The position numbers and the translations under genes were made by a program. A DNA stretch of 32,394 bases from a virus: positions 1 to 32,394 of IMG/VR virus record IMGVR_UViG_3300010167_000008, one strand, 5' to 3'. Below the pieces are notes generated by a model. It ran no database searches and was not told where the DNA came from. It worked only from the letters and a program-made list of their open reading frames with translations. This document shows, piece by piece, positions 777-25,193 of the stretch (positions within the stretch are counted from its first letter, which is position 1; each line of letters opens with the position of its first letter).

Positions 777-1003
777 CCATATAATAACAATATAACAATA
801 CATTTAACAATATAATATAAAGAACAACAACTATTTATGTTTGATTATTATATTATTATATAGATCTATTGATATGTATATATATTGATGTTGTTTTTTT
901 GAGAATTTTTTTTGTTTCTCTTTATGCAAACTTATAACTTTTAACAATCGCCCGAAACGCGCTATGTGTTAATACTTTCCGCACTTAAAAACGTTGTTAA
1001 ATG
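777..1003. repeat. AT-rich intergenic element, copy A (227 bp), homologous to 14299..14525; bounded by the inverted repeat CATTTAACAA (801..810) / TTGTTAAATG (994..1003)
   Basis: Blocks shared with copy B: CCATATAATA, CATTTAACAATA, TTCTCTTTATGCA (916..928), TTAACAATCGC (941..951), ACGTTGTTAAATG (991..1003); three TAACAATA copies at 785, 793 and 805. Confidence 0.8.
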
Positions 1004-1095
1004 GTTTTATTCGTATAACAATTTTATATCTGTGTGGTTGTGTGGTTGTTGCGGGCTGATTTTTGGCAGTTTTCGGCTCGAAACTCGATGGAACG

Positions 1096-1130
1096 ACAAA
1101 AAAGGCACGAGAATTGCTTCCCGTACCTTG
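1096..1130 (-). terminator. Rho-independent terminator after the lysis cassette
   Basis: Minus-sense AAGGUACG (1129..1122) pairs with CGUGCCUU (1109..1102), with one G-U pair, followed by a U run (A run 1098..1103 on plus); starts 18 nt after the stop at 1148. Confidence 0.6.
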
Positions 1131-3056: not shown

Positions 3057-4742
3057 TCATGGTTTTTTGAAGATTAAAACGTTCTGATGCACTCTGACGA
3101 CTTTGCTCGTCTTCATGCAGTTGTTGGCTCGCATTCCCGCGTTGCCAAATTTATTAACGAGGATAATCTCGTTGTAAAACTTGCAGCCCGCGTCCGTGAA
3201 CGCTCGGATAGTGTCGGGGACGAACCCATAGTAATTCCCGTCCTTGTCGCGAAATTCGCTAACTACAAAGGCAGCAAACCCGCCACGTTTGAGCACACCG
3301 CAAGACTTTTCTATTATCTGTCGGTACACCTGCATAAACGCGGGATATTTCATCGTGGATAGGTCTTCTGGAATGTCGCTGTACACTTCGAGGTCTCCAT
3401 ACGGAGGGCAACTCATAACCATATCAAACTCCGCTCCTTCGAGCATATCAAGGATTTGATTGCTGTCGCCGATAATCCAATTCGGCATCTTGATTTCAGG
3501 AGCCGCAACGGGGGTGCGCATGGTGGGTCGAATGCCAACTATCCACAGTAGGTCAGCGGGTTGTAGAAAGTCAATACACTTCGCCTCGTAGTATGGGTCG
3601 AGTTGAATTCCATTGTAAGTAGTAACCATTGCAGCGGAATGATAATCGCTACCATCGACGTCGACGATAGTAACCATGTCCCTCCAATTTGGCGGCGCGT
3701 ACTTATCAAGTCGCACCTCAGGGTCAGCACCAACGCGCACCGCAACAACGGGGATGTCCCGCATAGTGTCGCGCAACCCCCAAAGTACACCCGCAAGGGT
3801 CATGCCGCTTCCGCATGGCATTACAATCCGATTGACTTCGGGTGGAATGTTCTGAACTTGTTGGCGGTTCTGAGTAACAGCCTCTTCGCACTCCATACCA
3901 AAGGGGACGTCAAGATAATTCTCGGCGGCGGCAAATTCTCGGCTCCGTGCAATAATGACGGAGTTATAACCTTCCTTGTGCTGAATTATCCTCGCGCCGC
4001 TGTCTTGCGCCGCAATTAGTTCGTCGGATAACTGACCTTCGGGCGCGTGTACCACAACGGGAATGCCAAAGGCTTTTCCAATTTTGGCGAGGATATTGAT
4101 TTGCGGGCTGCTTCTGCTCCCCGCCGTTGTTATCCCCTGACCGACCGTGCGGTTCTTGATAACGAATTGAGAAGCCGTGCGAGCCTTCCCGCCAACCGCG
4201 CCACCGATTTCGAACAAGTCGTCCCGCTTGAAATAGACGTCGTCTATCAGTTGCACGGGGGTTAATTCGTTCGGGTTGCTGATGATTTGCGGTTTGGCGT
4301 TGGCAGGTGATTTGAATATTTCGCGGGCTTGCTCGTAATTGCTCTCGACCTGCTCCTTGCGGAGTTCAATGCCCGTGTAATCATAACCGAGTTTGTTGGC
4401 AACAATTCCTCGAACGGAGCCTCCTGCAAATGGATCAAGAATAGTCCCTCCCGTTGGCGCAAACCACTTGTATAACACTTCGCAGAGTGTCGCGCTGAAT
4501 ATACTTATATTAGATTTGAATTGTGTGCCAAATCTTGCATTATTCCTATTAGCGCCGCACCGTTCATTTCTTCCTAATTCTGACTTGATTCCCTTGCGTA
4601 ACCATTTGCCCTCGTTTTTATTATAATCGCCCGAGCGGGTGTCAATTATGGAAAATGGGTTCAGTAGGTACTTCCCCGCGCAAGTGGTTGTCGCGTCGAC
4701 CTTGTCGCCGAATAAGTTGTAATTTTTATTTTGTTCTGTCAT
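3057..4742 (-). CDS. Fusion protein (561 aa): permuted N6/N4 DNA amino-methyltransferase with an inserted ACC-deaminase/D-cysteine-desulfhydrase-like PLP enzyme domain (aa ~158-407, nt ~3522..4271)
   Basis: MTase motif I ILDPFAGGSVRGIVANKLGYDYTGIEL (aa 101-127) and motif IV FDMVMSCPPYGDLEVYSD (aa 439-456). Insert carries TPVQ, FKRDDL, GGAVGGKAR (K186), ITTAGSRSSPQ, PCGSGMTLAGVLWGL and GIQLDPYYEAKC. ATGA overlap with the helicase gene. Confidence 0.8.
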   Translation of the reverse strand: MTEQNKNYNLFGDKVDATTTCAGKYLLNPFSIIDTRSGDYNKNEGKWLRKGIKSELGRNERCGANRNNARFGTQFKSNISIFSATLCEVLYKWFAPTGGTILDPFAGGSVRGIVANKLGYDYTGIELRKEQVESNYEQAREIFKSPANAKPQIISNPNELTPVQLIDDVYFKRDDLFEIGGAVGGKARTASQFVIKNRTVGQGITTAGSRSSPQINILAKIGKAFGIPVVVHAPEGQLSDELIAAQDSGARIIQHKEGYNSVIIARSREFAAAENYLDVPFGMECEEAVTQNRQQVQNIPPEVNRIVMPCGSGMTLAGVLWGLRDTMRDIPVVAVRVGADPEVRLDKYAPPNWRDMVTIVDVDGSDYHSAAMVTTYNGIQLDPYYEAKCIDFLQPADLLWIVGIRPTMRTPVAAPEIKMPNWIIGDSNQILDMLEGAEFDMVMSCPPYGDLEVYSDIPEDLSTMKYPAFMQVYRQIIEKSCGVLKRGGFAAFVVSEFRDKDGNYYGFVPDTIRAFTDAGCKFYNEIILVNKFGNAGMRANNCMKTSKVVRVHQNVLIFKKP

Positions 4743-9305: not shown

Positions 9306-11233
9306 GACTCAATAATTAACGGGGAATTTTCTTTAACCCGTAACTCCACGAGGCACGGCAACAACGGCATATTCTTTTTCTCGCAGTTTTCGGCATTGTC
9401 GAAAAAGATAGGAAGGGCAACGGCGAAATGGTCTTGAAATCGTTGGCAGAGCATTGATAGTTTCGCATTTGCGCGGCTTGTATTTGGATTTTCAAACCCG
9501 TCAATCTTCATAATGGCAACCTCTTCGAAGCCCTCTTGCGTTATAAGTTTACGGAACAAAGTGATTTCAATTCCATCGGGAAGAAACTTGGAAATAGCGT
9601 CCTGACAATCAGTGCGATAATCGTTCTCAGCCTGCTCAATGGCAATCATTTGTCGCTCGTTCTCAATTAACGCCTTGCGCACCATTTCCGAACGGGCATC
9701 ATTTTTCGCAATCTGCTCGTCCGCCGTTGCATACCCATACGCAATCTCATCAGCCTTTTTGTCTTCGGATTGTAACTGCTCGATTTCGAGTTTGGCTGCT
9801 TGGATTTTTTCGCTGTTATTCACACCCTTGAAATCCGTGATGATTTTGGCTTGTAACTCCGCAATCCTCTTCGCCTTGTCGTCTTCCCACTTGCAAAGGT
9901 TGGCAGCGTTTTCGTCGTTGATAACCTGATTGTCGTGCGAAAACTGTTCACGGGCTTTCGCGTTGGTTTCGTTAATGGCAGCGTTACGGGCGGCGATTTC
10001 CTCGTTCTCCTTCTTTATTGCTTCGTTCTGCAATTCGATTGACTCGTTAAAAGTCTTGTCAAGGTTGCGCAATTCCGAACCTTGCTTTGTAACCGCGTCA
10101 ATCTCGGCAACAATGGCGGCTTTCCGCTCTTCAAGATTTTGCACCGATTTGTCAATCTCTTCCAATTTGGCAGCAATTTTCAGAGCGGCGTCAGCCTTGC
10201 TCGTATTGCGTTGAATTTCGGCGCAATCGGCATTCGTGCAGTACGGGCAAACCATACAGATGAAGTCCTCTTTATCGGCGGCGGCGGAGGTTACACTTGC
10301 AACCGTTTCTCGCTGTTTATTCCAATATGCAATCTTTTCATCGATGGCTTCGCGTTCTGCTACCTTCCCGCGATAAGTTACCAACAACCGCTCAATTTCG
10401 GGGTTCTTCTTGAGTTCAAGGTACATTTTAGGAGCCTCAATTTCGGCGGGCGTGAAAACGAGTTGCGGTTTGGGTGTAAACTTTTCGCCGTGAATATCTT
10501 GTATCTTTTCGCGGAGGCTTTGATTTTCCGCTAAAACATCGCTTGACACGGCGGCACGTTCTTCTTCATACATTTGCTCGATTTCTTTTTGAAGTGCGCT
10601 GATTCGGGCTGTATTGCGGTCGGTTTTTGGTTTTTCAGCGAAAGTCTCCCGCAAACTCTTTGATTTTATGTTCAACTCCTCCATTTCAGCCTTCTGCTCG
10701 TTGATTTCCTTGCGCAACACCGCTTTATTCGGAAGTTCGCGAATATAGTCAATCAGGTTCACGTTCACAATGGAGGAAATTATCTTGAGTTTATCCTTTT
10801 GCGCAAGGCTGATGAAATATTGCGGGTTTGTGAAAAGAGCAAGGTCGTAACCCTTGCAAGTATCCGCGATAGCGGCATTGTAGTCCGCCAACTTTACGGG
10901 CGTTTCGTTAAGAAAATATTCGCAGTTCAATTCGGTTTTTAACTTTTCGTCGTCCGTGCCGCGCTCGCGGGAATATAGTGGCTTTGCAGCCTTGCGGAAA
11001 ATCATGTCGTCCGTGTGGAAGGCAACTTCGGCAAATCGGTTGCCGTCCCTGTCTTCGTGGTTGTACACGTTGGACGATGTGAATTCTTTCATGTCGATAG
11101 AGCGTTGGTTCATACACCATAAAAAAGCATCTAAAATGGTGGTTTTTCCGCTCCCGTTTTCGCCGCTCACGGTGGCGGGGAATGCCACCGTGAGGTCGTG
11201 GTGTTTCTTGAATCTTTTAATTTCGATTTTCAT
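9302..11233 (-). CDS. Rad50/SbcC-like SMC-type ATPase with a zinc hook (643 aa)
   Basis: Walker A GENGSGKTT, long coiled-coil middle, mid-protein CPYC hook (aa 329-332, nt ~10238..10249), C-terminal Walker B-like LPIFFDNAE. Confidence 0.7.
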   Translation of the reverse strand: MKIEIKRFKKHHDLTVAFPATVSGENGSGKTTILDAFLWCMNQRSIDMKEFTSSNVYNHEDRDGNRFAEVAFHTDDMIFRKAAKPLYSRERGTDDEKLKTELNCEYFLNETPVKLADYNAAIADTCKGYDLALFTNPQYFISLAQKDKLKIISSIVNVNLIDYIRELPNKAVLRKEINEQKAEMEELNIKSKSLRETFAEKPKTDRNTARISALQKEIEQMYEEERAAVSSDVLAENQSLREKIQDIHGEKFTPKPQLVFTPAEIEAPKMYLELKKNPEIERLLVTYRGKVAEREAIDEKIAYWNKQRETVASVTSAAADKEDFICMVCPYCTNADCAEIQRNTSKADAALKIAAKLEEIDKSVQNLEERKAAIVAEIDAVTKQGSELRNLDKTFNESIELQNEAIKKENEEIAARNAAINETNAKAREQFSHDNQVINDENAANLCKWEDDKAKRIAELQAKIITDFKGVNNSEKIQAAKLEIEQLQSEDKKADEIAYGYATADEQIAKNDARSEMVRKALIENERQMIAIEQAENDYRTDCQDAISKFLPDGIEITLFRKLITQEGFEEVAIMKIDGFENPNTSRANAKLSMLCQRFQDHFAVALPIFFDNAENCEKKNMPLLPCLVELRVKENSPLIIES

Positions 11234-13251: not shown

Positions 13252-13686
13252 CTACCATTTAACCTCGAAGTCAGACTTCGACGTTTGATTTACAATTTCC
13301 ATTCCCAAATCTATCGCCTGCTTTGGCAACACGATATTCTCGGCGCGATACGCTTTCACTATTACTCTCTGAATGGCTTGAAGAGCATACCATTCTTCGC
13401 TCGTGTATGTTCCCCGCTTGATAGTCGGATAATAGTAGGAGCGGGCGTTTTTTGTGCAAAATCCTTTAAATGAACACTTGTAAGTACGGGCGGGCATTTC
13501 GGTCGATACTATCATCTCCTCGCCGTCAGGTGCTTGGAGGTCGAGTACAACCATTTTTTCGGGGATTGCTTCCCGCCTCACGAGTTCACTTTTTTTCCAA
13601 TCATTCGTGAAAATGATTGTGTTGGTAGCGTTTCCGCAACGTACTTCGTAGCGGGCATTTTTGTCGTTCAATTTGTTTTTTATCAT
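13252..13686 (-). CDS. Hypothetical protein (144 aa), first gene of the early operon
   Basis: ORF on the coding strand after the ~900-bp non-coding region. Confidence 0.55.
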   Translation of the reverse strand: MIKNKLNDKNARYEVRCGNATNTIIFTNDWKKSELVRREAIPEKMVVLDLQAPDGEEMIVSTEMPARTYKCSFKGFCTKNARSYYYPTIKRGTYTSEEWYALQAIQRVIVKAYRAENIVLPKQAIDLGMEIVNQTSKSDFEVKW

Positions 13687-13705
13687 AATGTACTGAAATT
13701 TTTTG

Positions 13706-13725
13706 GTTAATAATGTTGTTAATAA
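13706..13725 (-). promoter_or_regulatory. Two tandem TTATTAAC motifs (13706..13713 and 13718..13725) upstream of the ATG at 13686
   Basis: GTTAATAA twice on plus; the proximal copy is 19 nt from the ATG. Confidence 0.35.
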
Positions 13726-13740
13726 ATATACTATATAAGT

Positions 13741-13783
13741 GGCGGGCGGCGGTTGCGAGCCGCCATTGTGTTAAACGCCCGCC
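13741..13783 (-). other. GC-rich stem-loop with alternative pairings in the early-operon leader
   Basis: ggcgggcg (13741..13748) pairs with cgcccgcc (13776..13783); ggcgg (13748..13752) can instead pair with ccgcc (13760..13764). Confidence 0.45.
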
Positions 13784-14298
13784 GTTAATGTTTTATGTTG
13801 TCATCTATAAGTACTCGCGCCTTTTTTCCATCCGCTTTCGTTTTTTCGCAAAGTCTCAGATATTGTCGTTGAGGTTGGTAGTTTGAGAGTTCTTTGCTTC
13901 GAGGTTTATACTCCCCTCGCTCTGGAGGTTTTTAGTCGGTGGCTCCCGCCGTTCCGCTTTGGTGTTTTTTTCGCAGGTGTTCCCGTCCTGCATCAAAGAG
14001 CGCGTTTTTTTTGTGTTACTTTCGTTTAGTTTCACACCGCAAAAATAAAACTATTTCAATACAAAAATTTTTATCTCGCATTTTTTTTGCATTTTTTTTT
14101 GAAAATAATGTTAAGTTGTTGAAAATAAGCCGATAAAAATGTTTACTTAATAATCAAAGTTAATTAGGAACGTAAAGTGCTGATTATCGCAAAGATAAAC
14201 GATCTATCTCGCAGAGGTATAAACACACGAGAAAAAAAGAAGTGCCGTTAAATCGCACAAAATCGGCATTGTCGGGCAAATTGCTTTTCTTATAATAT

Positions 14299-14525
14299 CC
14301 ATATAATACACATTTAACAATAAAAATAACTATATAATATAATAATAATCAACAAGTTATGTTTTAGAATTATATAATTATATTGATCTTATATATACCT
14401 CTGATTTTTTGGTGTTTTTTATCGATTTTTCTGTTGTTCTCTTTATGCAGGTGTTTAACAATTTAACAAATCGCGTCAAACGCTGTACGGGTGCGGTTTC
14501 TCGCGGTTAAATACGTTGTTAAATG
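14299..14525. repeat. AT-rich intergenic element, copy B (227 bp), homologous to 777..1003; inverted repeat CATTTAACAA (14311..14320) / TTGTTAAATG (14516..14525)
   Basis: Same shared blocks as copy A: TTCTCTTTATGCA at 14437..14449, TTAACAAATCGC at 14463..14474, ACGTTGTTAAATG at 14513..14525. Confidence 0.8.
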
Positions 14526-14535
14526 TTAAATGAAC

Positions 14536-14558
14536 AAAAAAAAGCGGCACGGAGCCGC
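14536..14558 (-). terminator. Rho-independent terminator ending the late/accessory transcription unit
   Basis: Stem gcggc (14544..14548) / gccgc (14554..14558) with a 5-nt loop, followed in minus sense by eight U (A run 14536..14543); lies ~30 nt after the stop at 14591. Confidence 0.65.
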
Positions 14559-14590
14559 CATTTTCGAAAAAGTAAGTTTTTCGCAATTCA

Positions 14591-15102: not shown

Positions 15103-15110
15103 GTTATTAA
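15103..15110 (-). promoter_or_regulatory. TTAATAAC motif (variant of TTATTAAC), 17 nt upstream of the ATG at 15085
   Basis: GTTATTAA on plus; overlaps the stop of the 41-aa ORF. Confidence 0.3.
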
Positions 15111-16790: not shown

Positions 16791-17147
16791 TTAACAAAGA
16801 TTTTCCGTGAATAAAATGACGTCCAACTTCCGATATTGTCCGTGTTCCTTGATTTTATGGAACTTGTCGAGAAACTTATCGACAAATCGGCGGCTGATGG
16901 CTTCCATGCCGCAACGTTGGATTTTACGGTTAATGTAACCAATAATCTCTTCAAACTTGATACTTTCGTCCCCGTTGAATTGTAGCAACCGTTGACATTG
17001 CTCATAGGTGGCATTACTGTTCGCACTTTCAAGCCGTGCAATTTGTGCCGCTGCAAAATCACGGGCATCTCCGTCGAGTTCTCCGTTGGCGGCTGCAATT
17101 ATTAACTGCTCCTTTGCAACGCGGTTGAGTGTTTCTTGTTCTGTCAT
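16791..17147 (-). CDS. Hypothetical protein (118 aa)
   Basis: ORF; ATGA-type overlap with the upstream membrane protein gene (17144..17147). Confidence 0.5.
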   Translation of the reverse strand: MTEQETLNRVAKEQLIIAAANGELDGDARDFAAAQIARLESANSNATYEQCQRLLQFNGDESIKFEEIIGYINRKIQRCGMEAISRRFVDKFLDKFHKIKEHGQYRKLDVILFTENLC

Positions 17148-17578
17148 CTTTTGGATGGATTTTTATGTTTATATAAGTAAGTCGATAAGATAATTGCTGA
17201 AATGCAAAGAAACAGCGTGAAAAAATAGATATTCATCGAAAATGTTTCGTCAAATACATATCTATCTACTAACTGCATAATTACAAAATTAGCGGTAATG
17301 AAATAAATTGGAATCTGGTGATATTTGCAGAATTTTAATTGAAAACTTAACACGAGTAAAAATGCCATACATAGATAATTGAATAAGTATGCAAGGAAAT
17401 TAGAAACGGGTGTGTCGTAATAAGTCATCATATATTCCCCTTTGGCATTATACAACGGAATTGAATTTGAAAAATAAAAGGAGTGCAGCGTTTCACACGT
17501 CGCCACTCCAATCATTGCAATAATCACAAACGGAAGTATCCGTGTGAATTTTACTTTGAGTTTTTCTTTAATTGACAT
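17144..17578 (-). CDS. Polytopic membrane protein (144 aa, ~4 TM), AT-rich
   Basis: Hydrophobic segments ILPFVIIAMIGVA, LAYLFNYLCMAFLLVLSF, IPIYFITANFVIMQL and IYFFTLFLCISAIILSTYL. Confidence 0.55.
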   Translation of the reverse strand: MSIKEKLKVKFTRILPFVIIAMIGVATCETLHSFYFSNSIPLYNAKGEYMMTYYDTPVSNFLAYLFNYLCMAFLLVLSFQLKFCKYHQIPIYFITANFVIMQLVDRYVFDETFSMNIYFFTLFLCISAIILSTYLYKHKNPSKR

Positions 17579-17759
17579 TTTTTTTTCTGATTTTGAACTT
17601 TGCCACCAAACCTGTCGGCTTCATTGCGAAAAGTACATTGTCCTCTTCGTCGCAAATCTCAATATCATAATCACTAATGTCAGAAAACTCGATTTCAGCA
17701 TTCAAGGTCAAAAATTCCTCGTCTTGCTGTGTTGATTCGTTTTTTGCTTTTAAGTTCAT
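17568..17759 (-). CDS. Small acidic protein (63 aa)
   Basis: ORF rich in D/E (EIEFSDISDYDIEICDEEDN). Confidence 0.45.
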   Translation of the reverse strand: MNLKAKNESTQQDEEFLTLNAEIEFSDISDYDIEICDEEDNVLFAMKPTGLVAKFKIRKKNVN

Positions 17760-17772
17760 GATGATTAATTAG

Positions 17773-17780
17773 GTTAATAC
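17773..17780 (-). promoter_or_regulatory. GTATTAAC motif (variant of TTATTAAC), 13 nt upstream of the ATG at 17759
   Basis: GTTAATAC on plus; the same variant occurs at 968..975 inside repeat copy A. Confidence 0.3.
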
Positions 17781-17818
17781 GGCGGCAAAAGTAAGTTGAT
17801 AAATCATGTACAACGCGA

Positions 17819-18901
17819 TTACCGGAATAATTGAACTTGCAAATCTATTACATATATTTTTGCTCCAATATCTTTACTCTCAGGAACAATCATTTTGTCT
17901 CTCCAACGTAACCAATTATAAGCAAATAAATTTGATAATACATCAAGATTATAAGTCCTATACGTATAATCTAACATGGAAAAGAATATAATTTCTTTTC
18001 CTGAATGATTATATATAAGTGCATCATTTCTAAATATTTGTAATCCATAAATGAAAGGGTATTGTAAATTAGTATTAATAGATGTTTCATCCAACAAATT
18101 AAAAACAACATACCAACCTGTTCCTTGTACACCCGAACCAATTAATATTTTGTCGTGAAATAAAGCCATTATATTATTCCCGTTACTTCTTGACGCTGCT
18201 GCTAATGTAACTATACGAGTTTTTTCAGTTGTTAAATCTATAATGTCAATAATATTAGTATCGCTTCTATGTACATATAGATTTCCTCTCCACACCACAC
18301 CACAAAACCGATTTGCTGACGCTAGAAGAACCATCATACGATAGGTTTCAGTATTTAAGTCAAAAATGCAACAAAGATTGCTATTGGGTGCGAAAATGTA
18401 CAATGCATCACGATATATAATTGAAAATGTTGTCGAAGTAAAAGGAATATTAACAGTTCTAACTACTTTTGTTTGTGTATTAATTATTTCAATATTTGCT
18501 TGATTGCTTGTTATATATAAGTTATCTTTCCAAGCATTTATTGAATTTCTAACTCTTGAACTTCCCAACGATACTTCGCTTGCAGTTTCAGTAATACAAT
18601 CAAAAATTGTCATATTTTGACTATTATATCCTGCACCATAAAAAACATCATTATGAATACATGATGCTCTTATTTCTCCTTGTTCTGTACGGTTATATGA
18701 CCTAAATTTTGGAGTTGGATCAGGAACTTTTACAACAACGGGATTAAACCCATCAACTCCACTGTCGACGTTGTATGTCCCGTTGGCAGTAACATTCAAA
18801 GGATTAATTACGGGAGGAGTAGTTGTTCCTCCACTCCCTTCGGCTTCAAAGTAGCGGGTAATTATAACCCGTTTTTCTTTCATATCTTTTGATAATTGCA
18901 T
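17819..18901 (-). CDS. Putative receptor-binding tail protein with a ~7-bladed beta-propeller-like repeat domain (360 aa)
   Basis: Seven ~40-aa repeats sharing (W/Y/F)(R/K/H)(D/G)xLY ... hhhDhxTE, e.g. MTIFDCITETASEV, IEIINTQTKVV, CCIFDLNTETYRM, IDIIDLTTEKTRI, VVFNLLDETSI, IFFSMLDYTYRT, IYVIDLQVQ; last large gene of the tail module; very AT-rich. Confidence 0.55.
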   Translation of the reverse strand: MQLSKDMKEKRVIITRYFEAEGSGGTTTPPVINPLNVTANGTYNVDSGVDGFNPVVVKVPDPTPKFRSYNRTEQGEIRASCIHNDVFYGAGYNSQNMTIFDCITETASEVSLGSSRVRNSINAWKDNLYITSNQANIEIINTQTKVVRTVNIPFTSTTFSIIYRDALYIFAPNSNLCCIFDLNTETYRMMVLLASANRFCGVVWRGNLYVHRSDTNIIDIIDLTTEKTRIVTLAAASRSNGNNIMALFHDKILIGSGVQGTGWYVVFNLLDETSINTNLQYPFIYGLQIFRNDALIYNHSGKEIIFFSMLDYTYRTYNLDVLSNLFAYNWLRWRDKMIVPESKDIGAKIYVIDLQVQLFR

Positions 18902-18918
18902 GATAATAAATATTTTAA

Positions 18919-18926
18919 GTTAATAA
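18919..18926 (-). promoter_or_regulatory. TTATTAAC motif, 17 nt upstream of the ATG at 18901
   Basis: GTTAATAA on plus. Confidence 0.35.
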
Positions 18927-18953
18927 ATAAAGTTCAAAAATATATAAATTCTA

Positions 18954-20804
18954 TTAATCCAATAAAATCAGAGTTAATTCTGCTATCCCTTTCTGCCATG
19001 TGCCTCCCGAGCAAGCGTATTTTTTCGCTTTTAAAATAAAGGTTGTTTTTTCTTTAATGTTATGGAATTCATATTGATACATATATAATTTCGCAATAAC
19101 TTCGGTCGATTTTTCATAAATATTATCTAGATGCGAATTTGGGAAGAATTGTATCCTTTTGAATTTTGAATTTGGTGCTGCCATCATTAATTCAGCACCA
19201 TCCCTTTTCAAAAAAAAGTTTACCCCATCAGAATGAATATCATCAGAAAAGGAAACACCGTCTTCTTCGTTAGTTTCCGAAAATGGTATAACGAATAATT
19301 CTTTTTCAACGGGCAAATTATCATTTTCTATCTCTAATACCCTTATTTGATTATTTTTAACATAATCAAGACTATCAAATCTAACTATGTTTTTTTGAGC
19401 GGAATCAATAAATGTTCTTCTTACAGACTTTATAGAAATAATTTTATCTGTAATATCGATTATATTATTATCAGGAAAATTGTAATCAAAGAATTCAATT
19501 TCATTGTCATTAATAATAATTCCATTTTTAGTTAAATTAGATATTGTTAATATCAAATCAACCGCCGTGCATTGTGGCATATTGAATTGAAGATGTACGT
19601 AATTGTTATAGATTAATTCTTCTTGAAATTCTTCTATTTCTGCAAAAAAAAGACCATGCCTACCATTATTTGAGGCATCCGTTCCGAGTGCCTGCGAAGA
19701 ATCTAATTCAACCCACCCGTCAGGTTTGTTATAAGATTCAGGAGTTAATGCAAGGAAATTATGTTTATTCCATAATTGAAAATAAATTTCTTGTCCTTCT
19801 TCGAGTTCATACGGTTTAAATGGCGGAAATGGTGCGGTGTTGTTCTGTCTCCATATAACTAACTGTTTAGGCGTAACATTGTAATAGTTCATATTTTGGT
19901 CAAACGCGAGTTGCCCCCACGTTGATGGTTTAACTAATCCCCATACACTTTGCCCCGTTTGGCTATCTATTCGAATAACATCCCACATTGCAGTAGTTAC
20001 TTTCATTTTTTTATTCGCACGAAAACCATATACCCAATGCCAAACTCCGTCAAGTGTCTGAAATTGTCTACTTACAATAGATATTTCAGATGGATTATTT
20101 GGCAAAAAATATGTTCTGATATTTGGATTAGTAGGATGCGACCCATAACCACCGAGAACTATTATTTCTTTTGTCAAATAGTTAATGCTGCCACCTAAAT
20201 CATTTCTTTTAATATAAACATTGTTTATTAGAGTTGGTATATTTTTTGAAGTAATTCCGAAATTTAATAGGCTTTTTTCTAAAAGATACTTTAATTTTAC
20301 GCTTGGCAAATAATTAATTTTATTCGGTATATCCGCTTCCATTAAATTCAAATATTTTCCAATTCCATAATTTCCAACTTGGTCTGAATTGACAGGTGGA
20401 TTAGTTGCACCCCAAAAAACTTTATCTGAAAGTGTAAGATATGTATCTATTAATCCAGATTCTCGTAATTCCTTCAATTTAATTATATTTCCATACGCAA
20501 ATATGCAATCATAAGAATCATTAAATTCTCGAATTAATAATTCGCCATGTATAACTCCGTTTGGAAAATAAATATTAGCATTCTTCTTCGTTCTAATAAA
20601 TGTACCTCTATATTGTGGAAGATGAGCGAAATTGAATATCCTATCGTTTGTAGGTGTTCGATTTACTTTGAAAGATTGTGTTCTGTTTAATTTCATTTTC
20701 TCAAACATAAATAATGAATTCTCATACATATAAGAAAATGAAATATCGTCTAATTCTATCTCAACTCCGTCTATAAATAATCTGTTCATAATACTGTCCT
20801 CCAA
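18954..20804 (-). CDS. Large tail-tip/baseplate protein (616 aa; alternative start at 20789 gives an ATGA overlap with the upstream stop)
   Basis: Second gene downstream of the tape measure; AT-rich; assigned by synteny only. Confidence 0.5.
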   Translation of the reverse strand: MEDSIMNRLFIDGVEIELDDISFSYMYENSLFMFEKMKLNRTQSFKVNRTPTNDRIFNFAHLPQYRGTFIRTKKNANIYFPNGVIHGELLIREFNDSYDCIFAYGNIIKLKELRESGLIDTYLTLSDKVFWGATNPPVNSDQVGNYGIGKYLNLMEADIPNKINYLPSVKLKYLLEKSLLNFGITSKNIPTLINNVYIKRNDLGGSINYLTKEIIVLGGYGSHPTNPNIRTYFLPNNPSEISIVSRQFQTLDGVWHWVYGFRANKKMKVTTAMWDVIRIDSQTGQSVWGLVKPSTWGQLAFDQNMNYYNVTPKQLVIWRQNNTAPFPPFKPYELEEGQEIYFQLWNKHNFLALTPESYNKPDGWVELDSSQALGTDASNNGRHGLFFAEIEEFQEELIYNNYVHLQFNMPQCTAVDLILTISNLTKNGIIINDNEIEFFDYNFPDNNIIDITDKIISIKSVRRTFIDSAQKNIVRFDSLDYVKNNQIRVLEIENDNLPVEKELFVIPFSETNEEDGVSFSDDIHSDGVNFFLKRDGAELMMAAPNSKFKRIQFFPNSHLDNIYEKSTEVIAKLYMYQYEFHNIKEKTTFILKAKKYACSGGTWQKGIAELTLILLD

Positions 20805-21742
20805 TTTTTAACCTGCATTGTAAAGATAACCGTTTGCGTCACTTGTTTTTCTTCGACCCTGAATTGCTTTTCTTTTATATTGACGGGAAGCCATTTGCCG
20901 CTAACTTCGTCAAGATAAGCAACACTGTCAGATAACACAATGTCGCTCAAATATTTACGTGTCAGCAAATCGGCGTTTTCGTGTCCTATTATAATGTCTA
21001 ACAACTTGTCTGACATTGTGTTATATCCGTCAGGATTTGACGTTTTAAACACGTCTATTGACTTGCTCGTGCTGTGGATAACAGCATGGCGGGAAAAGTA
21101 CCAATATTTTGTAAAATTATTTTGAGACAGCCACCTGATACATTGGTAGTAAATCCCGCAACGAGGCTGAAAGAATTCAATTATGTAGCGGTGGTCGCTT
21201 CCATAGTAATGTTCAAACGTCTTGTCGAAAGTGTTGTCAAAAGTACCCGCGTGTTCAAAGATTTCGCCGATAGTAAATCGTTTCGTGCTTTGCCACACAT
21301 TTAACGATTGTACCTTGTTTTCGACTGTTCCCCACACGGTTGAAGTTCCGTCATAGTTTACACGCCGAATTTCTTGTCCAACCCTATCAGGCATGAAAAA
21401 CAAGACAGGAAACGAACCACTTATTGACACAATAGGTATTTTTAACGGAGGATAAATATCTTCAAATAAAATATTCGCACCGTTTTGGGCTGACCAAGTC
21501 AGCGTCAAAATCACCCCGTCGTTATGATTTCGCACAAGAAATTGTCCGCTATGATACACACGGATATAATCAGTAACGTCGACAGTTATTGTGTTGGCAT
21601 AGAAATTGTACCAAATTTCATTCACTTTGATACGTGGAATATTCGTTGCTTTTCGGGTTATAGTGATAAGGTGTGTTTCCCACCAATTTGTCCTGTCGTC
21701 AAAATATTCTATTTTGAAATCGTTGTTGTTAAAAATTCTCAT
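20786..21742 (-). CDS. Distal tail protein candidate (318 aa)
   Basis: Immediately downstream of the tape measure gene with a 4-nt overlap; assigned by synteny only. Confidence 0.45.
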   Translation of the reverse strand: MRIFNNNDFKIEYFDDRTNWWETHLITITRKATNIPRIKVNEIWYNFYANTITVDVTDYIRVYHSGQFLVRNHNDGVILTLTWSAQNGANILFEDIYPPLKIPIVSISGSFPVLFFMPDRVGQEIRRVNYDGTSTVWGTVENKVQSLNVWQSTKRFTIGEIFEHAGTFDNTFDKTFEHYYGSDHRYIIEFFQPRCGIYYQCIRWLSQNNFTKYWYFSRHAVIHSTSKSIDVFKTSNPDGYNTMSDKLLDIIIGHENADLLTRKYLSDIVLSDSVAYLDEVSGKWLPVNIKEKQFRVEEKQVTQTVIFTMQVKNWRTVL

Positions 21743-24675
21743 ATCGTAATGTGTTTTTCCATTAAGTCAATACCTTTTTCAAATTCCGTAAACTCGCGAT
21801 AATCCATTAGTAGCGTTATTTTTGACGCTGCGTCTTCAAACACTTCTCCGAGTGCCTCGTAATCTATTCCCCTGCCAAAGTTACCATTTTCAATCGCGCT
21901 CCATAATTCCCTCTGTTGCCCCTTATTCATCACTATTTCTCCCGTGCTGAGCCTTGCGTTTATCTGGTCGGAATATGAGTTACCTTGAACAATACCACCG
22001 CCCGCGAATTTGGGGCTTTTTGGCGGTTCTTTCAATACATTGTACGCTCCAACGATGGCGGCGGCAACCGCTCCAACACCCGTCGCAATGGCAACAAGAT
22101 TTAACGGGAACATCTGACCCGCCCCCGCTGCAATGGCTTCTGAAATTCCGACCGCAAGGTTGGCTCCGATTTGGAACAGCGCAAGGGCTTTCGTGAACCC
22201 CGCCATCGTTTCATTATCCTCCGCCAAAGTGGATATCATGTCTTTAAGTGCGCCCGTAATAGAACCCATTGCGGCGATGTTTGTTTGCGCCGTTTTTCGT
22301 ATGGTCTCAGCCACTTTCTTTTCCCCCTCTATAACTTCTCTTTGTGCCGCAAGTTTCGCCGCCTGATACGCTGCATCGCTTTGAAATAACGCCGCTTTTG
22401 TCTCTGCATCGAGGTTAATTAGAAAATCAGCCCGTTGTTGCGCTGATTCCTGCTCTATTATCGCGGTCTGCACCTCATCGTCCATAAACAACTGTAATCG
22501 CTCCTCGTAACCGTTGGCAACGGCGAGCGTTTGTGCTTCAATTCGGTTACGGATTTCCTGATTTAACACCTCCGTCTCCTGCATTGCGTACTTCTGCGAT
22601 ATGGCGTTCAATTCAATAATCGAATTCTGCCATATAGAGAACTCCTCCGCGCTTCCTGCTTTCACGCCTTGCAACCTTGCGTCGAGTGTCTTTTGATATT
22701 CATGCAGTTCTTCCGTGCGCAAGGATTCAATCATTTTCAACCGCAAATCTCTCTCCTCCGCGCTGCCTTTGGCGGCAACTTCGAGCAACAACTGTATCCG
22801 CTTTTGTTCTTGCGTTACCTGCTTTTGAAAGGCTTCCTCGCTATATTTTACCTTTATGTCAATTATACTCTGCTCGCTGCCTTTTTGCATGGCTTCGATT
22901 GTGGCTTGAATGCTCGCCCGTGCCTCCTTTGTCAAGGTTTTTTCTTTGTCGAGCCTCTTTTGCAGGTCTTCAATCTTGCGGCGTGTGGCAACCTTTTCCG
23001 CCTCTATATCTCGCTCCTCCCCCGCCTTGCGTAACTTGAGCAATTCATCCTCAAGGTTACGGGCTGCGTCGAGCGTTTCTTTGATACGTTTGGCACGTTC
23101 ATCGGCGGCTTGCTTTCCCGCGTCCTTTTGCGCCTTGACAGCGGCGTCTGCGATGTCTTGCAACTTTTGTTCGGCGGTTTTTACCTCCGTTGTAATCTCG
23201 ACCCCGATTTGCACTTGCGCCTCAAACCCTTCAATCTGCTCTTTCAATTCCTTCAATTCCTTGTCAATCTTTTTGCGGCGGCGGCGTCCCGCGTCTTCTC
23301 GTTCCTTTTCAATAGCACGCTCTTTATCTTGTGCCTTTTGTAGTAATAACTCGTTGTTTTTCAGGTTTTTAACCTCGTTTTCGTGTTCGCTCTCGCGTTG
23401 CTTTGCCGATGCCAACCTTGCATCCGCCAACTCCTGCTCCGCTTTCTGAATGTCTTTGGTTGCTTCGCCCCGCGCTTTCATGCGGTCGATGTCCCGTTGT
23501 TGCGCCTCAAAGACTTCGTCTTGTGCCTTTTTCTGACGCTCCATAATGCGAATATTTTCGCGCAATTCTTCATTATAATCGGCTTGCGCACTTTTCGCCT
23601 CTTTGCTACTACCTATTAACATCGCGATCCCTGCTGTCAATGCAATTAACGCGGTTAATATCAATATTGCGGGGTTGGCTGACAACGCTGCATTCAGCAA
23701 CCACGTTGCCGCCGCCGCGAGTTTGGTTACGACCGTTCCTGTTCCCATGACTGTCGCCTTTGCCGCCTCCGCTTTCGTTTGCGCCACCGTTTGCGATAAA
23801 CCTATCTTGTCGAGCAAGTTTTTAGAGGCTTGAAAAACGAGGCTCTTCTGATTGAGCATGATATTAACTTGTTGAACGGTGGAAAGTGCCACCATTGCAA
23901 TCTGAAGTTTCTGCATTAACTCAGCCGCCCGCTCGTTGTCTATGTTCAACGAGTTCAGCGTGTTCTGAAATAACATCATGGAGGTATTAACCCCCTGCAT
24001 TGCACCTTGTAACGCTCCGATATTTGTACTCGATTTTGCACTTGCATCAAGTTCGGCATTTAAGGAGTTGATTTGTCTTTTTACTTCACCCGCCTCTTTT
24101 GCAATCTGTCGATATTCCTCGCTGTTCTTTCCCCCCGCTTGCGCTAACACGTCCATTTCGTTCTTTAATTCCTTGAGTGTGGTTTTAAGGGTTTTATTGC
24201 CGACCTCATAGTTACCAACTTGTCGGGTGTACACGCCGAAAGATTTTTCGGTTTCGAGAACCTTTGAATTCAGTTCTGCCAACGTCTTGAGCATTTCCTT
24301 TCCACCCGTACTTTGACGCTGTTCTTCGCTCAAGGCTGCATATTGCTGTTTCAAGTTCCCAATCGCCGCCCGTTGTTCGTTGAGCGAACTGCCATAACTG
24401 AGCGTGTCCTTGTTCAGCGTGTTCAAGGTTTGCACGGCGGTCTTCTGCTCCGCTTGTAACATCTTGAGTTCGCTCTTGTTGTCCGCTATTTTGGCGGTGT
24501 TCTGCGCAATCTGTTCGGCATTTGCCTTGTAATTATCCGACAGACTTTTGTTTGCTGCTTCAAGTTGCGCCGTTTCATTCTTATTGTCTTGAATGACTTT
24601 GACAAGGTTCTGCAACTTTGTCATCGTGTCGGTTTCGTTTATTTCAACGTCTATAATTACTGTCGTGTTTGCCAT
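21739..24675 (-). CDS. Tail tape measure protein (978 aa)
   Basis: Largest ORF; extended Ala/Gln/Glu/Lys-rich helical sequence; central hydrophobic segments (AAAATWLLNAALSANPAILILTALIALTAGIAMLIG) and a second near the C-terminus (LAVGISEAIAAGAGQMFPLNLVAIATGVGAVAAAIVGA). Confidence 0.8.
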   Translation of the reverse strand: MANTTVIIDVEINETDTMTKLQNLVKVIQDNKNETAQLEAANKSLSDNYKANAEQIAQNTAKIADNKSELKMLQAEQKTAVQTLNTLNKDTLSYGSSLNEQRAAIGNLKQQYAALSEEQRQSTGGKEMLKTLAELNSKVLETEKSFGVYTRQVGNYEVGNKTLKTTLKELKNEMDVLAQAGGKNSEEYRQIAKEAGEVKRQINSLNAELDASAKSSTNIGALQGAMQGVNTSMMLFQNTLNSLNIDNERAAELMQKLQIAMVALSTVQQVNIMLNQKSLVFQASKNLLDKIGLSQTVAQTKAEAAKATVMGTGTVVTKLAAAATWLLNAALSANPAILILTALIALTAGIAMLIGSSKEAKSAQADYNEELRENIRIMERQKKAQDEVFEAQQRDIDRMKARGEATKDIQKAEQELADARLASAKQRESEHENEVKNLKNNELLLQKAQDKERAIEKEREDAGRRRRKKIDKELKELKEQIEGFEAQVQIGVEITTEVKTAEQKLQDIADAAVKAQKDAGKQAADERAKRIKETLDAARNLEDELLKLRKAGEERDIEAEKVATRRKIEDLQKRLDKEKTLTKEARASIQATIEAMQKGSEQSIIDIKVKYSEEAFQKQVTQEQKRIQLLLEVAAKGSAEERDLRLKMIESLRTEELHEYQKTLDARLQGVKAGSAEEFSIWQNSIIELNAISQKYAMQETEVLNQEIRNRIEAQTLAVANGYEERLQLFMDDEVQTAIIEQESAQQRADFLINLDAETKAALFQSDAAYQAAKLAAQREVIEGEKKVAETIRKTAQTNIAAMGSITGALKDMISTLAEDNETMAGFTKALALFQIGANLAVGISEAIAAGAGQMFPLNLVAIATGVGAVAAAIVGAYNVLKEPPKSPKFAGGGIVQGNSYSDQINARLSTGEIVMNKGQQRELWSAIENGNFGRGIDYEALGEVFEDAASKITLLMDYREFTEFEKGIDLMEKHITI

Positions 24676-24677
24676 AA

Positions 24678-25193
24678 TTAGTGAATTGTCAGTGTTTTAA
24701 CAACGTTATCGAGTATAACTTTCTCTATTTCTCTGACCGCGTCAGGCACAACGTTTGAATATATGTCGTTGCGCGGGTTTCGGTGTCTGTCCGTTCCTTT
24801 TTCTGCGATATTGTGCGCAATGGCTCCCGCCATTGCATCAAGTCCACGCTCGGCGGGGTCTTTGGGCGGAAAACGCCTTTGCATTGCTTCGCTATTCAGA
24901 TATCGCTCGGAGTATTGCAACGGCGCAACGGTTATGCCTTTGTCTTTTATCCATTGTTTGATGATAGATCGAAAACCTTGTGGCACGTCGCCCGCTTCCC
25001 TACCTATTTCCAACGTTCCAATCGGAGCCGTCCCTTCTCCCCCCGCAACCAACCGAACACCGTTGTCGTCTATTTCAATGTGAAAACTTTCGCTCGTCCG
25101 ACCGCTCGCGTTAATACCTTGCGCCTGCATATTATTTTGAATTTGCACGGCAACACCTTCGAGAACTTCTGCTACTTCGTTTTTCATACGCAA
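24678..25193 (-). CDS. Virion-module protein (171 aa), possible head-tail joining protein
   Basis: Position upstream of the tape measure; weak resemblance to HK97 gp10-like proteins by eye only. Confidence 0.4.
   Translation of the reverse strand: MRMKNEVAEVLEGVAVQIQNNMQAQGINASGRTSESFHIEIDDNGVRLVAGGEGTAPIGTLEIGREAGDVPQGFRSIIKQWIKDKGITVAPLQYSERYLNSEAMQRRFPPKDPAERGLDAMAGAIAHNIAEKGTDRHRNPRNDIYSNVVPDAVREIEKVILDNVVKTLTIH

Follow-up and report, generated by a model that had tools for sequence, protein, structure and literature searches.

Paired intergenic elements with lineage-specific repeats head the two operons of a circular phage genome: candidate modules of the origin type

In phage lambda, OL and OR are two homologous regions heading two operons, and each has several short, lineage-specific sites that overlap a promoter. 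Phage P4 depends for its replication on a pair of separated iteron loci, ori and crr. At oriF and oriG of T4 and at the primary origin of T7, a promoter is followed by an easily melted AT-rich stretch, and the transcript opens or primes the origin. Phages of Bacteroidota lack the promoter and ribosome-binding signals of the model systems. To our knowledge, their replication origins and their early-to-late switch are essentially unmapped.

One of the closest described systems is that of SPP1, which has two homologous origins ~13 kb apart, each with repeats and an AT-rich unwinding element (PMC6316719). One initiator binds both origins, and oriR lies in an intergenic stretch of the late region (PMC6316719, PMC3485210). 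The second site has been proposed to stall replication forks for the theta-to-sigma switch, a step that needs phage recombination proteins (PMC6316719, PMC3485210). The Rep helicases of SaPIs, initiators that load themselves, provide a second point of comparison: their C-terminal winged-helix domain binds 6-12 penta- or hexanucleotide iterons flanking an AT-rich region, with an iteron specificity that varies between elements (PMC9371898).

The window analyzed here, the full 32,394 nucleotides of IMG/VR virus record IMGVR_UViG_3300010167_000008, is a circular contig (positions 1-123 equal 32272-32394) with a circle of 32,271 bp. The minus strand carries all genes. They form two co-directional operons, each headed by one copy of the element described below and each copy preceded by a terminator-like hairpin (Table 1). 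Copies A and B separate a replication/lysis arc of 13.5 kb from a structural arc of 18.7 kb. A first-pass annotation of the sequence had placed the copies after terminators and had them split the circle in this way, and both the hairpins with their T-runs and the circularity of the contig agree with it. Hairpins equivalent to the copy-B terminator are present in two contigs of related phages (L102 and L096).

The host is probably a member of the Bacteroidota. The nearest homologues are found in Alistipes, Bacteroides, Parabacteroides and Elizabethkingia phages, and the genes lack Shine-Dalgarno sequences. Because of this probable host, a generic sigma-70 promoter scan was disregarded. Megablast and blastn searches of GenBank phages returned no nucleotide relatives, and a search for tRNA genes found none. 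Its gene products include RecT, a nuclease with a metallo-beta-lactamase fold and an SbcC-like ATPase. Pfam, PHROG and NCBIfam scans of ~30 proteins detected no integrase, sigma factor or partition protein and no protein of the helix-turn-helix or ribbon-helix-helix type. Cumulative GC skew peaks near 12 kb and is lowest near 25-27 kb, neither extreme falling at copy A or B; the skew is uninformative, or confounded, here because every gene lies on one strand.

Table 1. Features of the two elements and their surroundings (window coordinates).
Feature	Position	Strand	Remark
Copy A	777..1003	-	between replication/lysis-arc terminator and 135-aa gene (636-229) that precedes large terminase
Site S1, copy A: inverted unit CATTTAACAA	994..1003	-	75 nt upstream of ATAAAGA anchor
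Promoter-like core, copy A: TTTC (-33-like), 19 nt with direct unit TTGTTAAAA (S2, 947-939), TAAGTTTG (-7, 934-927), CATAAAGAGAA	916..955	-	
A-rich (67% A) tract, then alternating AT, copy A	811..915	-	candidate DNA-unwinding element
Site S3, copy A: three direct units TTGTTAAATG, TTGTTATA, TTGTTATTA	784..810	-	
Copy B	14299..14525	-	head of replication operon; starts ~10 bp after structural-arc terminator
Site S1, copy B: two overlapping inverted units CATTTAACATTTAACAA	14516..14532	-	
Promoter-like core, copy B: TTTG (-33-like), spacer with two direct units TTGTTAAATTGTTAAA (S2), degenerate -7 AACACCTG, CATAAAGAGAA	14430..14482	-	
A-rich tract with three A-runs at 10-bp spacing, then AT-rich stretch, copy B	14321..14429	-	candidate DNA-unwinding element
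Site S3, copy B: direct unit TTGTTAAATG	14311..14320	-	
Separate promoter-like site TTTG-N14-TATTTTTG, A-runs before	14040..14062	-	~250 bp downstream of copy B; outside repeat
479-aa D5/P4-alpha-family SF3 helicase, hypervariable C-terminal 110 aa	4739..6178	-	candidate repeat binder
144-aa protein (gp144), first gene after copy B	13252..13686	-	second candidate binder
Intrinsic-terminator-like hairpin (1129-1102) and T-run	1092..1129	-	ends replication/lysis arc, 93 bp upstream of copy A; 100% conserved in relative
Intrinsic-terminator-like hairpin (14559-14543) and T8	14535..14559	-	ends structural arc, ~10 bp upstream of copy B

Copies A and B had been described as homologous non-coding sequences, and they can indeed be aligned end to end, with every conserved block listed earlier present. 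MAFFT alignment gives 73% mean column identity, flanks included, and the gapless segment 777-867 is 78% identical to 14299-14389. When the 32,271-bp genome is compared with itself by BLAST, A/B is the sole internal match (72% over 234 columns, E 1.7e-22). The duplication took place without any gene, because the first genes after the two copies, encoding 135 and 144 amino acids, are not homologous.

Each copy had also been taken to be bounded by a perfect 10-bp inverted repeat. An exact search finds the 10-mer TTGTTAAATG at four places, at 801-810 (-), 994-1003 (+), 14311-14320 (-) and 14516-14525 (+), which are the four arms, and nowhere else in the genome; the arms are 183 bp (A) and 195 bp (B) apart, as had been stated. 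One arm of each copy is terminal, but the homology continues past the other by 24 bp (A) or 12 bp (B), so that the inverted repeat stands while its role as a boundary holds at one end only. The inner arms of A and B occupy non-equivalent alignment positions, offset by one unit of a short tandem repeat. The three TAACAATA repeats noted in copy A at 785, 793 and 805 are present.

The organizing principle of the element is an array of 5-8 short repeat units rather than a perfect inverted repeat at both ends. The units, TGTTAW/GTTAAAW, are enriched relative to dinucleotide shuffles of the elements themselves (GTTAAAW, P 0.0005-0.01; TGTTAW, P <0.006). A tighter feature, shared by all five close copies, is a pair of inverted units, ATTTAACA / TGTTAA, spaced exactly 53-55 bp apart in the 5' portion of the element. 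Measured from the ATAAAGA anchor, an inverted unit lies at -75/-76 and a direct unit at -21/-22 in 5/5 close copies, and additional direct units are found from +92 to +127. Between S1 and S2, which are opposed in orientation, there is a spacer of 45 bp that contains GC, and the S2 and S3 units, on either side of the AT-rich stretch, have the same orientation. In the direction of transcription, the shared plan is an inverted hexamer-repeat site, the core, an A-rich tract, (AT)n and more repeat units.

The core is laid out as TTT(G/C), ~19 nt with direct repeat units, a (T/A)AnnTTTG-like motif and CATAAAGRG, an arrangement resembling Bacteroidota promoters. The 950-901 block of copy A is 100% identical in the relative. 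On the minus strand between the copy-A terminator and the gene start, TAnnTTTG occurs once, within the copy-A core. This -7 motif is present as TAAGTTTG in the A copies of the window and the relative, matches at 7/8 positions in L120, and is degenerate in window copy B (AACACCTG), in the relative's copy B and in the L096 copy. The -33 motif reads TTTG in window copy B, the L096 copy and L120, and TTTC in window copy A and both copies of the relative. The spacing from -33 to -7 is 18-21 nt in all copies compared; in the Bacteroidota sigma-A consensus, TTTG at -33 precedes TAnnTTTG at -7 by 19-21 nt. The separate site at ~250 bp downstream of copy B is identical in L102 and similar in L096 and L120, and is probably the early promoter.

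The AT-rich stretch that follows the core is the most easily melted DNA of the genome. The least stable 100-bp duplex is 14295-14394 in copy B (-97.1 kcal/mol), followed by 784-883 in copy A (-98.0 kcal/mol). Both are ~3.8 sd away from the genome mean over 100-bp windows (-134.9 +/- 9.7 kcal/mol), and both are located between sites S2 and S3. A 45-nt A-rich tract after the core is found in 6/7 copies. Phasing of A-tracts at 10 bp, judged by eye, occurs in copy B only, and intrinsic bending is therefore not a conserved property.

The element is conserved among related phages in the same syntenic placement. A sister phage carries both copies, A at 9665-9891 of contig L089 (88% identical to window copy A) and B at ~5553-5762 of L102 (74% identical to window copy B). 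In three more distant relatives (L096, with the copy-B orthologue at 1314-1548, L120 and L118), a copy precedes the replication operon; these distant-lineage contigs end before the terminase region, and a further contig, L123, does not include the boundary region. The repeat motif is GTTAAA in the window, the sister phage and L096, TTCTTATA in L120 (4/4 exact copies in 9.4 kb fall within the element) and TTCTATTA in L118 (6/6 exact copies in 11.9 kb). The core, TTT[G/C]...[C/T]ATAAAG[A/G]G, is unchanged across lineages while the repeat motif differs. In L096 both inverted-repeat arms are altered together (ATTTAACG / CGTTAAAT).

The 3' block of the sister phage's copy B is 92% identical to its own copy A, as against 76% to the orthologous window copy B. 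The two copies evolve in concert, and the sister phage shows gene conversion between them. Its copy B has a 23-bp deletion. Around copy A, the entire 1600-700 segment forms a mosaic block of high identity between window and sister phage.

A pattern of 20 specified bases, which fits 4/5 close copies, was scanned against IMG/VR, JGI metagenomes and one genome for each of 185,579 bacterial and archaeal species; the sister phage is the only real match, within the reach of an exact pattern that misses diverged copies, and the host genomes covered contain none; the remaining hits do not carry the element. A search by nhmmer with an A/B profile of 80 IMG/VR loci that share a 291-aa topoisomerase-like gene found nothing, indicating that the element is no feature of the wider group with that gene. 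Four IMG/VR matches to the TTAAANACGTTGTTAAATG motif were taken as chance, none being matched by the nhmmer A/B profile (E<=10). The core pattern CGCGA-N19-22-TGCATAAAGRRAR gave 11 matches in IMG/VR, all in unrelated sequence.

Two phage proteins are candidates for binding the repeats. The SF3 helicase, whose assignment to the SF3/D5 family is consistent, is the sole recognizable initiator-type protein of the phage and matches the P4-family model TIGR01613 (E 4e-9, with a score below the curated cutoff). Across the lineages compared, its C-terminal 110 residues are 88/34/18/14% identical, against 97/85/60/58% for the core. The C-terminus is modeled as a helix-helix-hairpin, winged-helix-like fold at pLDDT ~60, in a low-confidence model with a mean pLDDT of 54.6, and residues 426-451 give a weak excisionase-like match (E 0.004, below cutoff). 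The helicase gene (6178-4739) has copy A 3.7 kb downstream of it and copy B 8.1 kb upstream. A protein from the same sample as L096, P0007, is possibly the helicase of that lineage, the two contigs being non-overlapping, and its C-terminal domain is only 34% identical. If it is, the link between helicase and motif is weakened, because the domain is 34% identical and yet the motif has barely changed. The other candidate, gp144, belongs to a family found only in the three lineages with a GTTAA motif and absent from L118 and L120; it has no Pfam, PHROG or NCBIfam match.

The element is, in general, well supported as a conserved cis-element of the protein-binding type, since its position and architecture are conserved, its motif is lineage-specific around an invariant core, and the L096 arms changed together. 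Our preferred reading, held tentatively and with less than even confidence, is that A and B are paired modules of iterons, promoter and DNA-unwinding element bound by a phage protein, that is, twin regions of the origin type. The TGTTAA/GTTAAA units would be sites for one phage-encoded sequence-specific protein. This may be the SF3 initiator-helicase, with its variable C-terminal domain making the contacts, or else the 144-aa protein encoded by the first early gene. The protein would occupy repeats on both sides of the unwinding element. A host-type (Bacteroidota sigma-A-like) core inside the array would direct a transcript into the A-rich tract and could thereby aid opening or priming. The primary origin would be copy B, which heads the replication operon, and copy A, just upstream of the terminase genes, would be a second origin or an initiator-binding locus. 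Copy A appears to carry the sole recognizable promoter of the structural operon, so that late expression may be coupled to occupancy by the same protein.

Several observations run against the origin reading: the units on either side of the AT-rich stretch share one orientation, in contrast to SaPI origins, neither element adjoins the helicase gene (distances of 3.7 and 8.1 kb), and the extremes of GC skew, a confounded measure here, lie elsewhere. The position after a terminator and before an operon, and the unit inside the -33/-7 spacer, would fit an operator equally well. As to the embedded promoter, the -7 motif is canonical in the A copies only, near-canonical in L120 and absent in window copy B.

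A more elaborate form of the origin reading, unlikely in our estimation, has one initiator acting at both loci and coupling the firing of a copy-B origin, fork arrest or restart at copy A, and activation of a copy-A late promoter. Fork arrest or restart at copy A would then give the theta-to-concatemer switch, as proposed for SPP1 oriR. Occupancy of one rapidly co-evolving repeat code would time replication, late transcription and packaging, and gene conversion between A and B would keep both loci matched to the initiator.

The main rival, somewhat less probable than the origin reading, is that the copies are purely transcriptional twin control regions, in which a promoter with operators at -75, -21 and ~+110 is read by one phage regulator, possibly with looping, to bring about an early-to-late switch; the AT-rich stretch would then serve only as flexible loop or untranslated leader. 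A terminator precedes each copy and the first gene of an operon follows it, the core and its 18-21 nt spacing are compatible with the Bacteroidota -33/-7 layout, and the structural operon has no -7 motif available to it other than TAAGTTTG of copy A. Every copy has a repeat unit within the promoter spacer, the S1-S2 spacing is constant at ~5 helical turns, and the motif is lineage-specific, as in immunity operators. The gene immediately after B specifies gp144, a candidate regulator confined to the GTTAA-motif lineages, and repeated promoter cassettes are common in other Bacteroidota siphophages. However, copy B has a degenerate -7 motif and is followed, after a variable 100-250 bp, by a separate conserved promoter-like site, which argues that copy B is neither the early promoter nor its fixed-distance operator. 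A transcript from the copy-B core would have an untranslated leader of >800 nt, the profile scans of the phage proteins reveal no helix-turn-helix or ribbon-helix-helix regulator, and the most meltable DNA after the core in both copies is left unexplained. Promoter/operator and origin are inseparable by sequence alone, the anatomy as read having features of both. These two were among the four candidates offered by the first-pass annotation, with looping sites as a further one, and both find their features in the element; a MITE, the last of the four, is rejected, since homology runs 12-24 bp past one arm, the arms of A and B do not align, placement is syntenic and the exact-pattern scans find no dispersed or host copies.

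The remaining readings fare worse. A selfish or neutral repeat, either MITE-like or a sequence at module boundaries retained solely for the recombination it promotes between phages, is highly improbable: inverted 10-bp arms exist, gene conversion indicates that the copies recombine, and the mosaic block surrounds copy A, but the exact-pattern scans of species genomes, metagenomes and IMG/VR yield the sister phage only, the homology does not end where the inverted repeat does, no target-site duplication is seen by eye, and syntenic placement and internal geometry are kept in lineages whose helicases are only 44-47% identical. It is very unlikely that copy A is part of a pac/cos packaging region read by the small terminase, with copy B a decayed duplicate or secondary site. 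Copy A does immediately precede the 135-aa gene and the large terminase gene, the usual place for cos/pac. The 135-aa protein, however, is unconfirmed as a small terminase, with no family match and a poor single-sequence structure model (pLDDT 41), and divergence between window and relative is greatest in its N-terminal half (28-68% nucleotide identity), whereas the copy-A repeat units are identical, the opposite of what is expected for a cognate binder. Moreover, B-type copies are conserved in five lineages far from any terminase gene, and a second packaging site 13.5 kb off would cut genomes. Least probable of all is a cis-acting RNA, such as a twin antitermination element of the HK022 putL/putR or lambda nutL/nutR type, or a small RNA gene. 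Each operon has one of the two copies, and the element is downstream of a promoter-like core and so may be transcribed, but RNA structure in it is unsupported: five copies together give a weak consensus structure (-8.5 kcal/mol over 253 columns) with an unfavorable covariation term, and Rfam gives no match at the gathering threshold or at E<=1 except a below-threshold hit on the terminator. The part that would be transcribed is ~87% A+T, and the 23-bp deletion is tolerated in the sister phage's copy B.

The finding would be a moderate one under either the origin or the operator reading, as element classes of both kinds are already known. The phage would nevertheless make a compact experimental case, with two operons on one strand and two homologous modules with a conserved core, and the own repeat code of each lineage should make specificity swaps straightforward. 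B40-8-like siphophages of Bacteroidota (PDS1, AS73P1, TCUEAP2), which have a replication gene in common with the window phage, likewise have one-strand genomes with intergenic intragenomic repeats at operon heads. Their cassettes, in contrast, are ~100 bp long, occur in 2-4 copies with a canonical TTTG-N19-TATATTTG and a GC hairpin leader, and have no iteron array, long AT-rich stretch or sequence similarity to the window element. The order of core, A-rich tract and (AT)n is that of T4 oriF/oriG and the T7 primary origin, with an R-loop that is only hypothetical here; those origins use phage-specific promoters and lack iteron arrays.

Like OL and OR of lambda, copies A and B are two homologous multi-site regions that overlap promoter-like sequence at the heads of two operons. 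In lambda, divergent early operons flank the repressor gene, whereas here co-directional early and late operons are headed 13.5 kb apart; a repressor- or Cro-like fold is not detected in the phage, and the large AT-rich stretch has no counterpart in lambda operators. If the operator reading is true, lambda-like paired-operator logic would be at work in a phage with no recognizable repressor. With the SaPI and P4 origins the copies share a cluster of short repeats with an AT-rich region between repeat groups, and the helicase shares the P4-family match (below the curated cutoff) and a hypervariable C-terminus. The ori of SaPIs is immediately downstream of rep, whereas the window elements are kilobases from the helicase gene, and iterons across the AT-rich region are opposed there and co-oriented here.

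The likeness to SPP1 oriL and oriR extends to two distant homologous regions ~13 kb apart in a one-strand siphophage, each with repeats and an AT-rich stretch, and to the recombination-type proteins encoded by the phage (RecT, nuclease, SbcC-like ATPase). Both window copies are intergenic, in contrast to oriL, which is internal to the SPP1 initiator gene 38. In SPP1 a DnaB-type helicase works with a separate origin-binding protein and a loader, where the window phage has an SF3 helicase of the D5/P4 family. There is no sequence similarity between the two, and the embedded promoter-like core has no described SPP1 counterpart. If the origin reading is true, a lineage-specific hexamer array, a CATAAAGRG core and an A-rich/(AT)n stretch would serve as a signature by which to locate origins in related uncultivated phages, and the SPP1-type design of two homologous origins would extend to a phage with a self-loading SF3 helicase.

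The first-pass annotation had proposed that 777-1003 (copy A) and 14299-14525 (copy B) are homologous, and self-BLAST aligns them at 72% over 234 columns (E 1.7e-22), as the sole internal repeat that it finds. The conserved blocks listed there are present in both regions, as are the three TAACAATA repeats of copy A. The 10-bp inverted repeat also exists, its exact 10-mer TTGTTAAATG being found at four arms only; contrary to what was claimed, its arms do not mark both limits of the unit. The inner arms of the two copies are offset from each other by one short-tandem-repeat unit. We take the paired element to be genuine and conserved, a cis-regulatory module in two copies that contains a repeat code.

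Bases 1-123 recur at 32272-32394, so the contig is read as a circle of 32,271 bp. The minus strand holds all substantial ORFs, in two arcs that close with terminator-like hairpins (see table). Contigs of 32,393-32,411 bp that encode identical proteins occur in three assemblies, one from JGI and two from ENA. The host is probably a member of the Bacteroidota: the genes are without Shine-Dalgarno sequences, and the nearest homologues of the 291-aa protein (67-69% identity) are from Alistipes, Elizabethkingia, Bacteroides and Parabacteroides phages.

Genes, repeats and signals around the two elements (window positions unless a contig is named)
Feature	Position	Strand	Remark
Replication/lysis arc	13686 to 1148 in transcription direction	minus	bounded by terminator-like hairpin
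144-aa protein		minus	replication/lysis arc; function not assigned
291-aa 'topoisomerase-like' protein		minus	replication/lysis arc; phrog_6247
Protein with weak PHROG matches		minus	replication/lysis arc; RusA-like resolvase, polymerase processivity factor
SbcC/SMC-like ATPase		minus	replication/lysis arc
RecT, metallo-beta-lactamase-fold hydrolase		minus	replication/lysis arc
DUF5906 helicase, methyltransferase		minus	replication/lysis arc
Lysis cassette		minus	replication/lysis arc; M15 peptidase, DUF6808
Structural arc	636 across junction to 14591	minus	bounded by terminator-like hairpin
135-aa protein, large terminase, portal, S78 protease, capsid, tape-measure, tail proteins		minus	structural arc
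561-aa protein	3057-4742	minus
Mom-like protein, Dam-type methylase	L089 5305-6947		sister phage
Sister copy A (relA)	L089 9665-9891
Sister copy B (relB)	L102 about 5553-5762
Extra 90-aa ORF (278-bp insertion)	L089 9239-9511		sister phage; between DUF6808 gene and terminator preceding copy A
Direct repeat ACAACCACACAACCACACA	1026-1045	minus	A-specific spacer
Extra TTGTTAT unit	1021-1015		A-specific spacer
Tandem repeat-bearing module	L118 5918-6005, 6091-6173
Non-coding stretch, ~600 bp	13687-14298	minus	apparently non-coding; between copy B and first early gene
Promoter-like site TTTG-N14-TATTTTTG	14040-14062	minus	conserved; after A-runs; leader of ~350 nt
GC-rich nested hairpin GGCGGGCG...GGCGGCTCGCAACCGCC...CGCCCGCC	~13742-13783	minus
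TTAWTAAC sites, among others	2779-2786, 13706-13725, 15103-15110, 18919-18926, 26436-26443, 27678-27685, 30325-30332	minus
TTAWTAAC site	745-752	minus	just downstream of copy A
~100-bp repeat, phage TCUEAP2 (L115)	22944-23066, 24911-25059, 31012-31126, 38715-38824
~100-bp repeat, phage PDS1 (L114)	1843-1934, 10349-10440
~100-bp repeat, phage AS73P1 (L113)	10987-11069, 19767-19848

A sister phage (32,980/33,206 bp, 75-88% nucleotide identity) has both copies at equivalent positions. In L096, a more remotely related contig, a B-type copy sits between a terminator and the replication operon. The L120 and L118 lineages, further off still and reached through a helicase search (47% and 44% identity), each show an extended non-coding stretch before an SMC/RecT/helicase operon. 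The comparison covers seven copies from five lineages, with twin copies documented in two. Copy A is separated from its terminator by an A-specific spacer of ~93 bp, which the sister phage shares at 90-96% conservation and B-type copies lack.

Positions in the element are given on the transcribed strand, with the conserved ATAAAGA as reference. The five close copies (window, sister and L096) all carry inverted ATTTAAC(A/G) at -75/-76 (S1), direct TGTTAA at -21/-22 (S2) and direct T(T/C)GTTAAATG at +92 to +127, several with additional units. TTT(G/C) lies between S1 and S2, and is followed by 18-21 nt holding direct units, by a -7-like octamer (TAAGTTTG in copy A and relA, degenerate in B copies) and then by CATAAAGAGAA. 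This is the layout of a putative Bacteroidota promoter; PDS1, AS73P1 and TCUEAP2 provide canonical examples (TTTG-N19-TATATTTG) in their repeated cassettes. Downstream of the core are ~45 nt with 58-67% A and then (AT)n, and it is here that duplex stability over 100-bp windows reaches its two lowest values in the genome (-97.1 and -98.0 kcal/mol vs a mean of -134.9 +/- 9.7). Since copy A has the only -7 motif available to the structural operon, we think that it serves as the late promoter, whatever its other roles.

Comparison between lineages is the most telling result. L120 (CACTTTGCGCGA...TTTTGCATAAAGG) and L118 (...TTGTATAAAGGG) retain the core together with its AT-rich downstream stretch, but both differ from the window in the motif that is repeated. 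L120 has TTTCTTATA, and its 9.4 kb contain four exact copies of TTCTTATA, each of them inside the element. L118 has TTCTATTA/TAATAG, arranged as inverted pairs of two tandem 9-bp units, with 6/6 exact TTCTATTA copies in 11.9 kb inside the element. In L096 both inverted arms are altered together, to ATTTAACG/CGTTAAAT. An invariant core with lineage-specific repeats would be expected of a fast-evolving phage DNA-binding protein's sites around the site of a conserved machine, probably the host's. In L118 the repeat-bearing module is tandemly duplicated with a period of ~154-173 bp, each unit being GCGAAAAAACTATTA ... CTATTATTTCTATTA ... TAATAGTTTTAATAG. Orthologues group in the 5' block (copy A-relA 86%, copy B-relB 71%, A vs B 52-64%), whereas the 3' AT block of relB is 92% identical to relA and only 76% to copy B, so the two copies exchange sequence within a genome.

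TTAWTAAC is found 16 times in the window, a count that none of 100 shuffles reached (expected 4.3). Twelve of these sites are on the coding strand; most of them precede a start codon by 14-25 nt, usually as ATTATTAACC with an A-rich stretch behind it. L096 also has one upstream of a gene. In a host whose genes lack Shine-Dalgarno sequences, the octamer could act as a translation or transcription signal tied to gene starts. Two independent sister-phage assemblies break at or beside the nested hairpin (L092 start, L101 start with poly-A/poly-C junk, L102 end), perhaps because sequencing is impeded there or because the DNA itself has an end. The B40-8-like Bacteroidota siphophages TCUEAP2 (host Elizabethkingia), PDS1 (Parabacteroides) and AS73P1 (Alistipes) have 2-4 copies of a ~100-bp repeat, which is thus common to phages of three host genera. 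It combines AAAATAAAAGA..TTTTGGTAAT..TATATTTGC (canonical -33/-7) with the leader hairpin ACGACCGGGCGTTTTCCCGG, also conserved.

At each of its ends the 561-aa protein matches DNA methyltransferases (N6_N4_Mtase, weak Eco57I and PHROG methyltransferase families), and in between it matches a pyridoxal-phosphate enzyme (PALP). The combination is unusual and might point to DNA hypermodification. The locus looks like a module swap because the sister phage has different proteins in its place and the nucleotide match breaks. The tail-fibre region (~17100-21000) has ~27-39% G+C in 300-bp windows, mostly near 30%, vs ~45% elsewhere, and hardly aligns with the sister phage at the nucleotide level (between 17820 and 22660 only 18839-19100 does), which suggests a recently exchanged host-range cassette.

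Two proteins are circumstantial candidates for reading the repeats. The 479-aa protein (DUF5906; TIGR01613 E 4e-9, below the curated cutoff) has Foldseek matches to MPXV E5, vaccinia D5, ASFV C962R and NrS-1, and is classed by homology as a D5/P4-alpha-family SF3 helicase. Its last 110 residues are 88/34/34/18/14/15% identical to homologues P0006-P0011, vs 97/85/80/60/58/55% for the core; residues 403-451 form a helix-helix-hairpin in a low-confidence model (mean pLDDT 54.6). P0007 and L096 are from the same sample, on non-overlapping contigs; if they belong to one phage, the helicase C-terminus has diverged far more than the repeat motif. The gene of the 144-aa protein directly follows copy B, and its family is found only in the three lineages with the GTTAA motif; this and the 135-aa protein have only one or two homologues each among 5.8 billion proteins.

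The suggestion of a degenerate MITE was rejected: the inverted repeat is not terminal, no target-site duplication is seen by eye, and a 20-specified-base pattern that fits four of the five close copies, scanned for exact matches in IMG/VR, JGI metagenomes and one genome per species for 185,579 species, finds the element only in the sister phage, other matches being without it. A structured RNA was rejected also, the consensus fold being weak, the covariation term unfavourable and an Rfam scan of the element without match. A role in terminase recognition is improbable: between window and sister, no segment diverges more than the N-terminal half of the neighbouring 135-aa protein, copy A repeat units are identical in the sister, and B-type copies are conserved far from terminase genes.

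Two proposals of the first-pass annotation, a promoter/operator and an iteron origin, fit the element and are not mutually exclusive. Operator-type control sites, the less probable of the two readings, would account for the location past terminators and ahead of operons, for a repeat unit within the predicted promoter spacer and for the constant distance from S1 to S2; they explain less well the degenerate -7 motif of copy B, the separate conserved predicted promoter 100-250 bp beyond it at variable distance, and the most unstable DNA right after the core. That the elements are origin-type loci has somewhat less than an even chance in our judgement, and would account for the iteron-like array, the predicted promoter that runs straight into the DNA easiest to melt, the initiator-type helicase of superfamily SF3 and the two matched loci. 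The module falls among known classes, iteron origins or paired operators. For origin-type loci, the P4 origin is one clear precedent. Others are SPP1 oriL/oriR (PMC6316719, PMC3485210) and the SaPI origins (PMC9371898).
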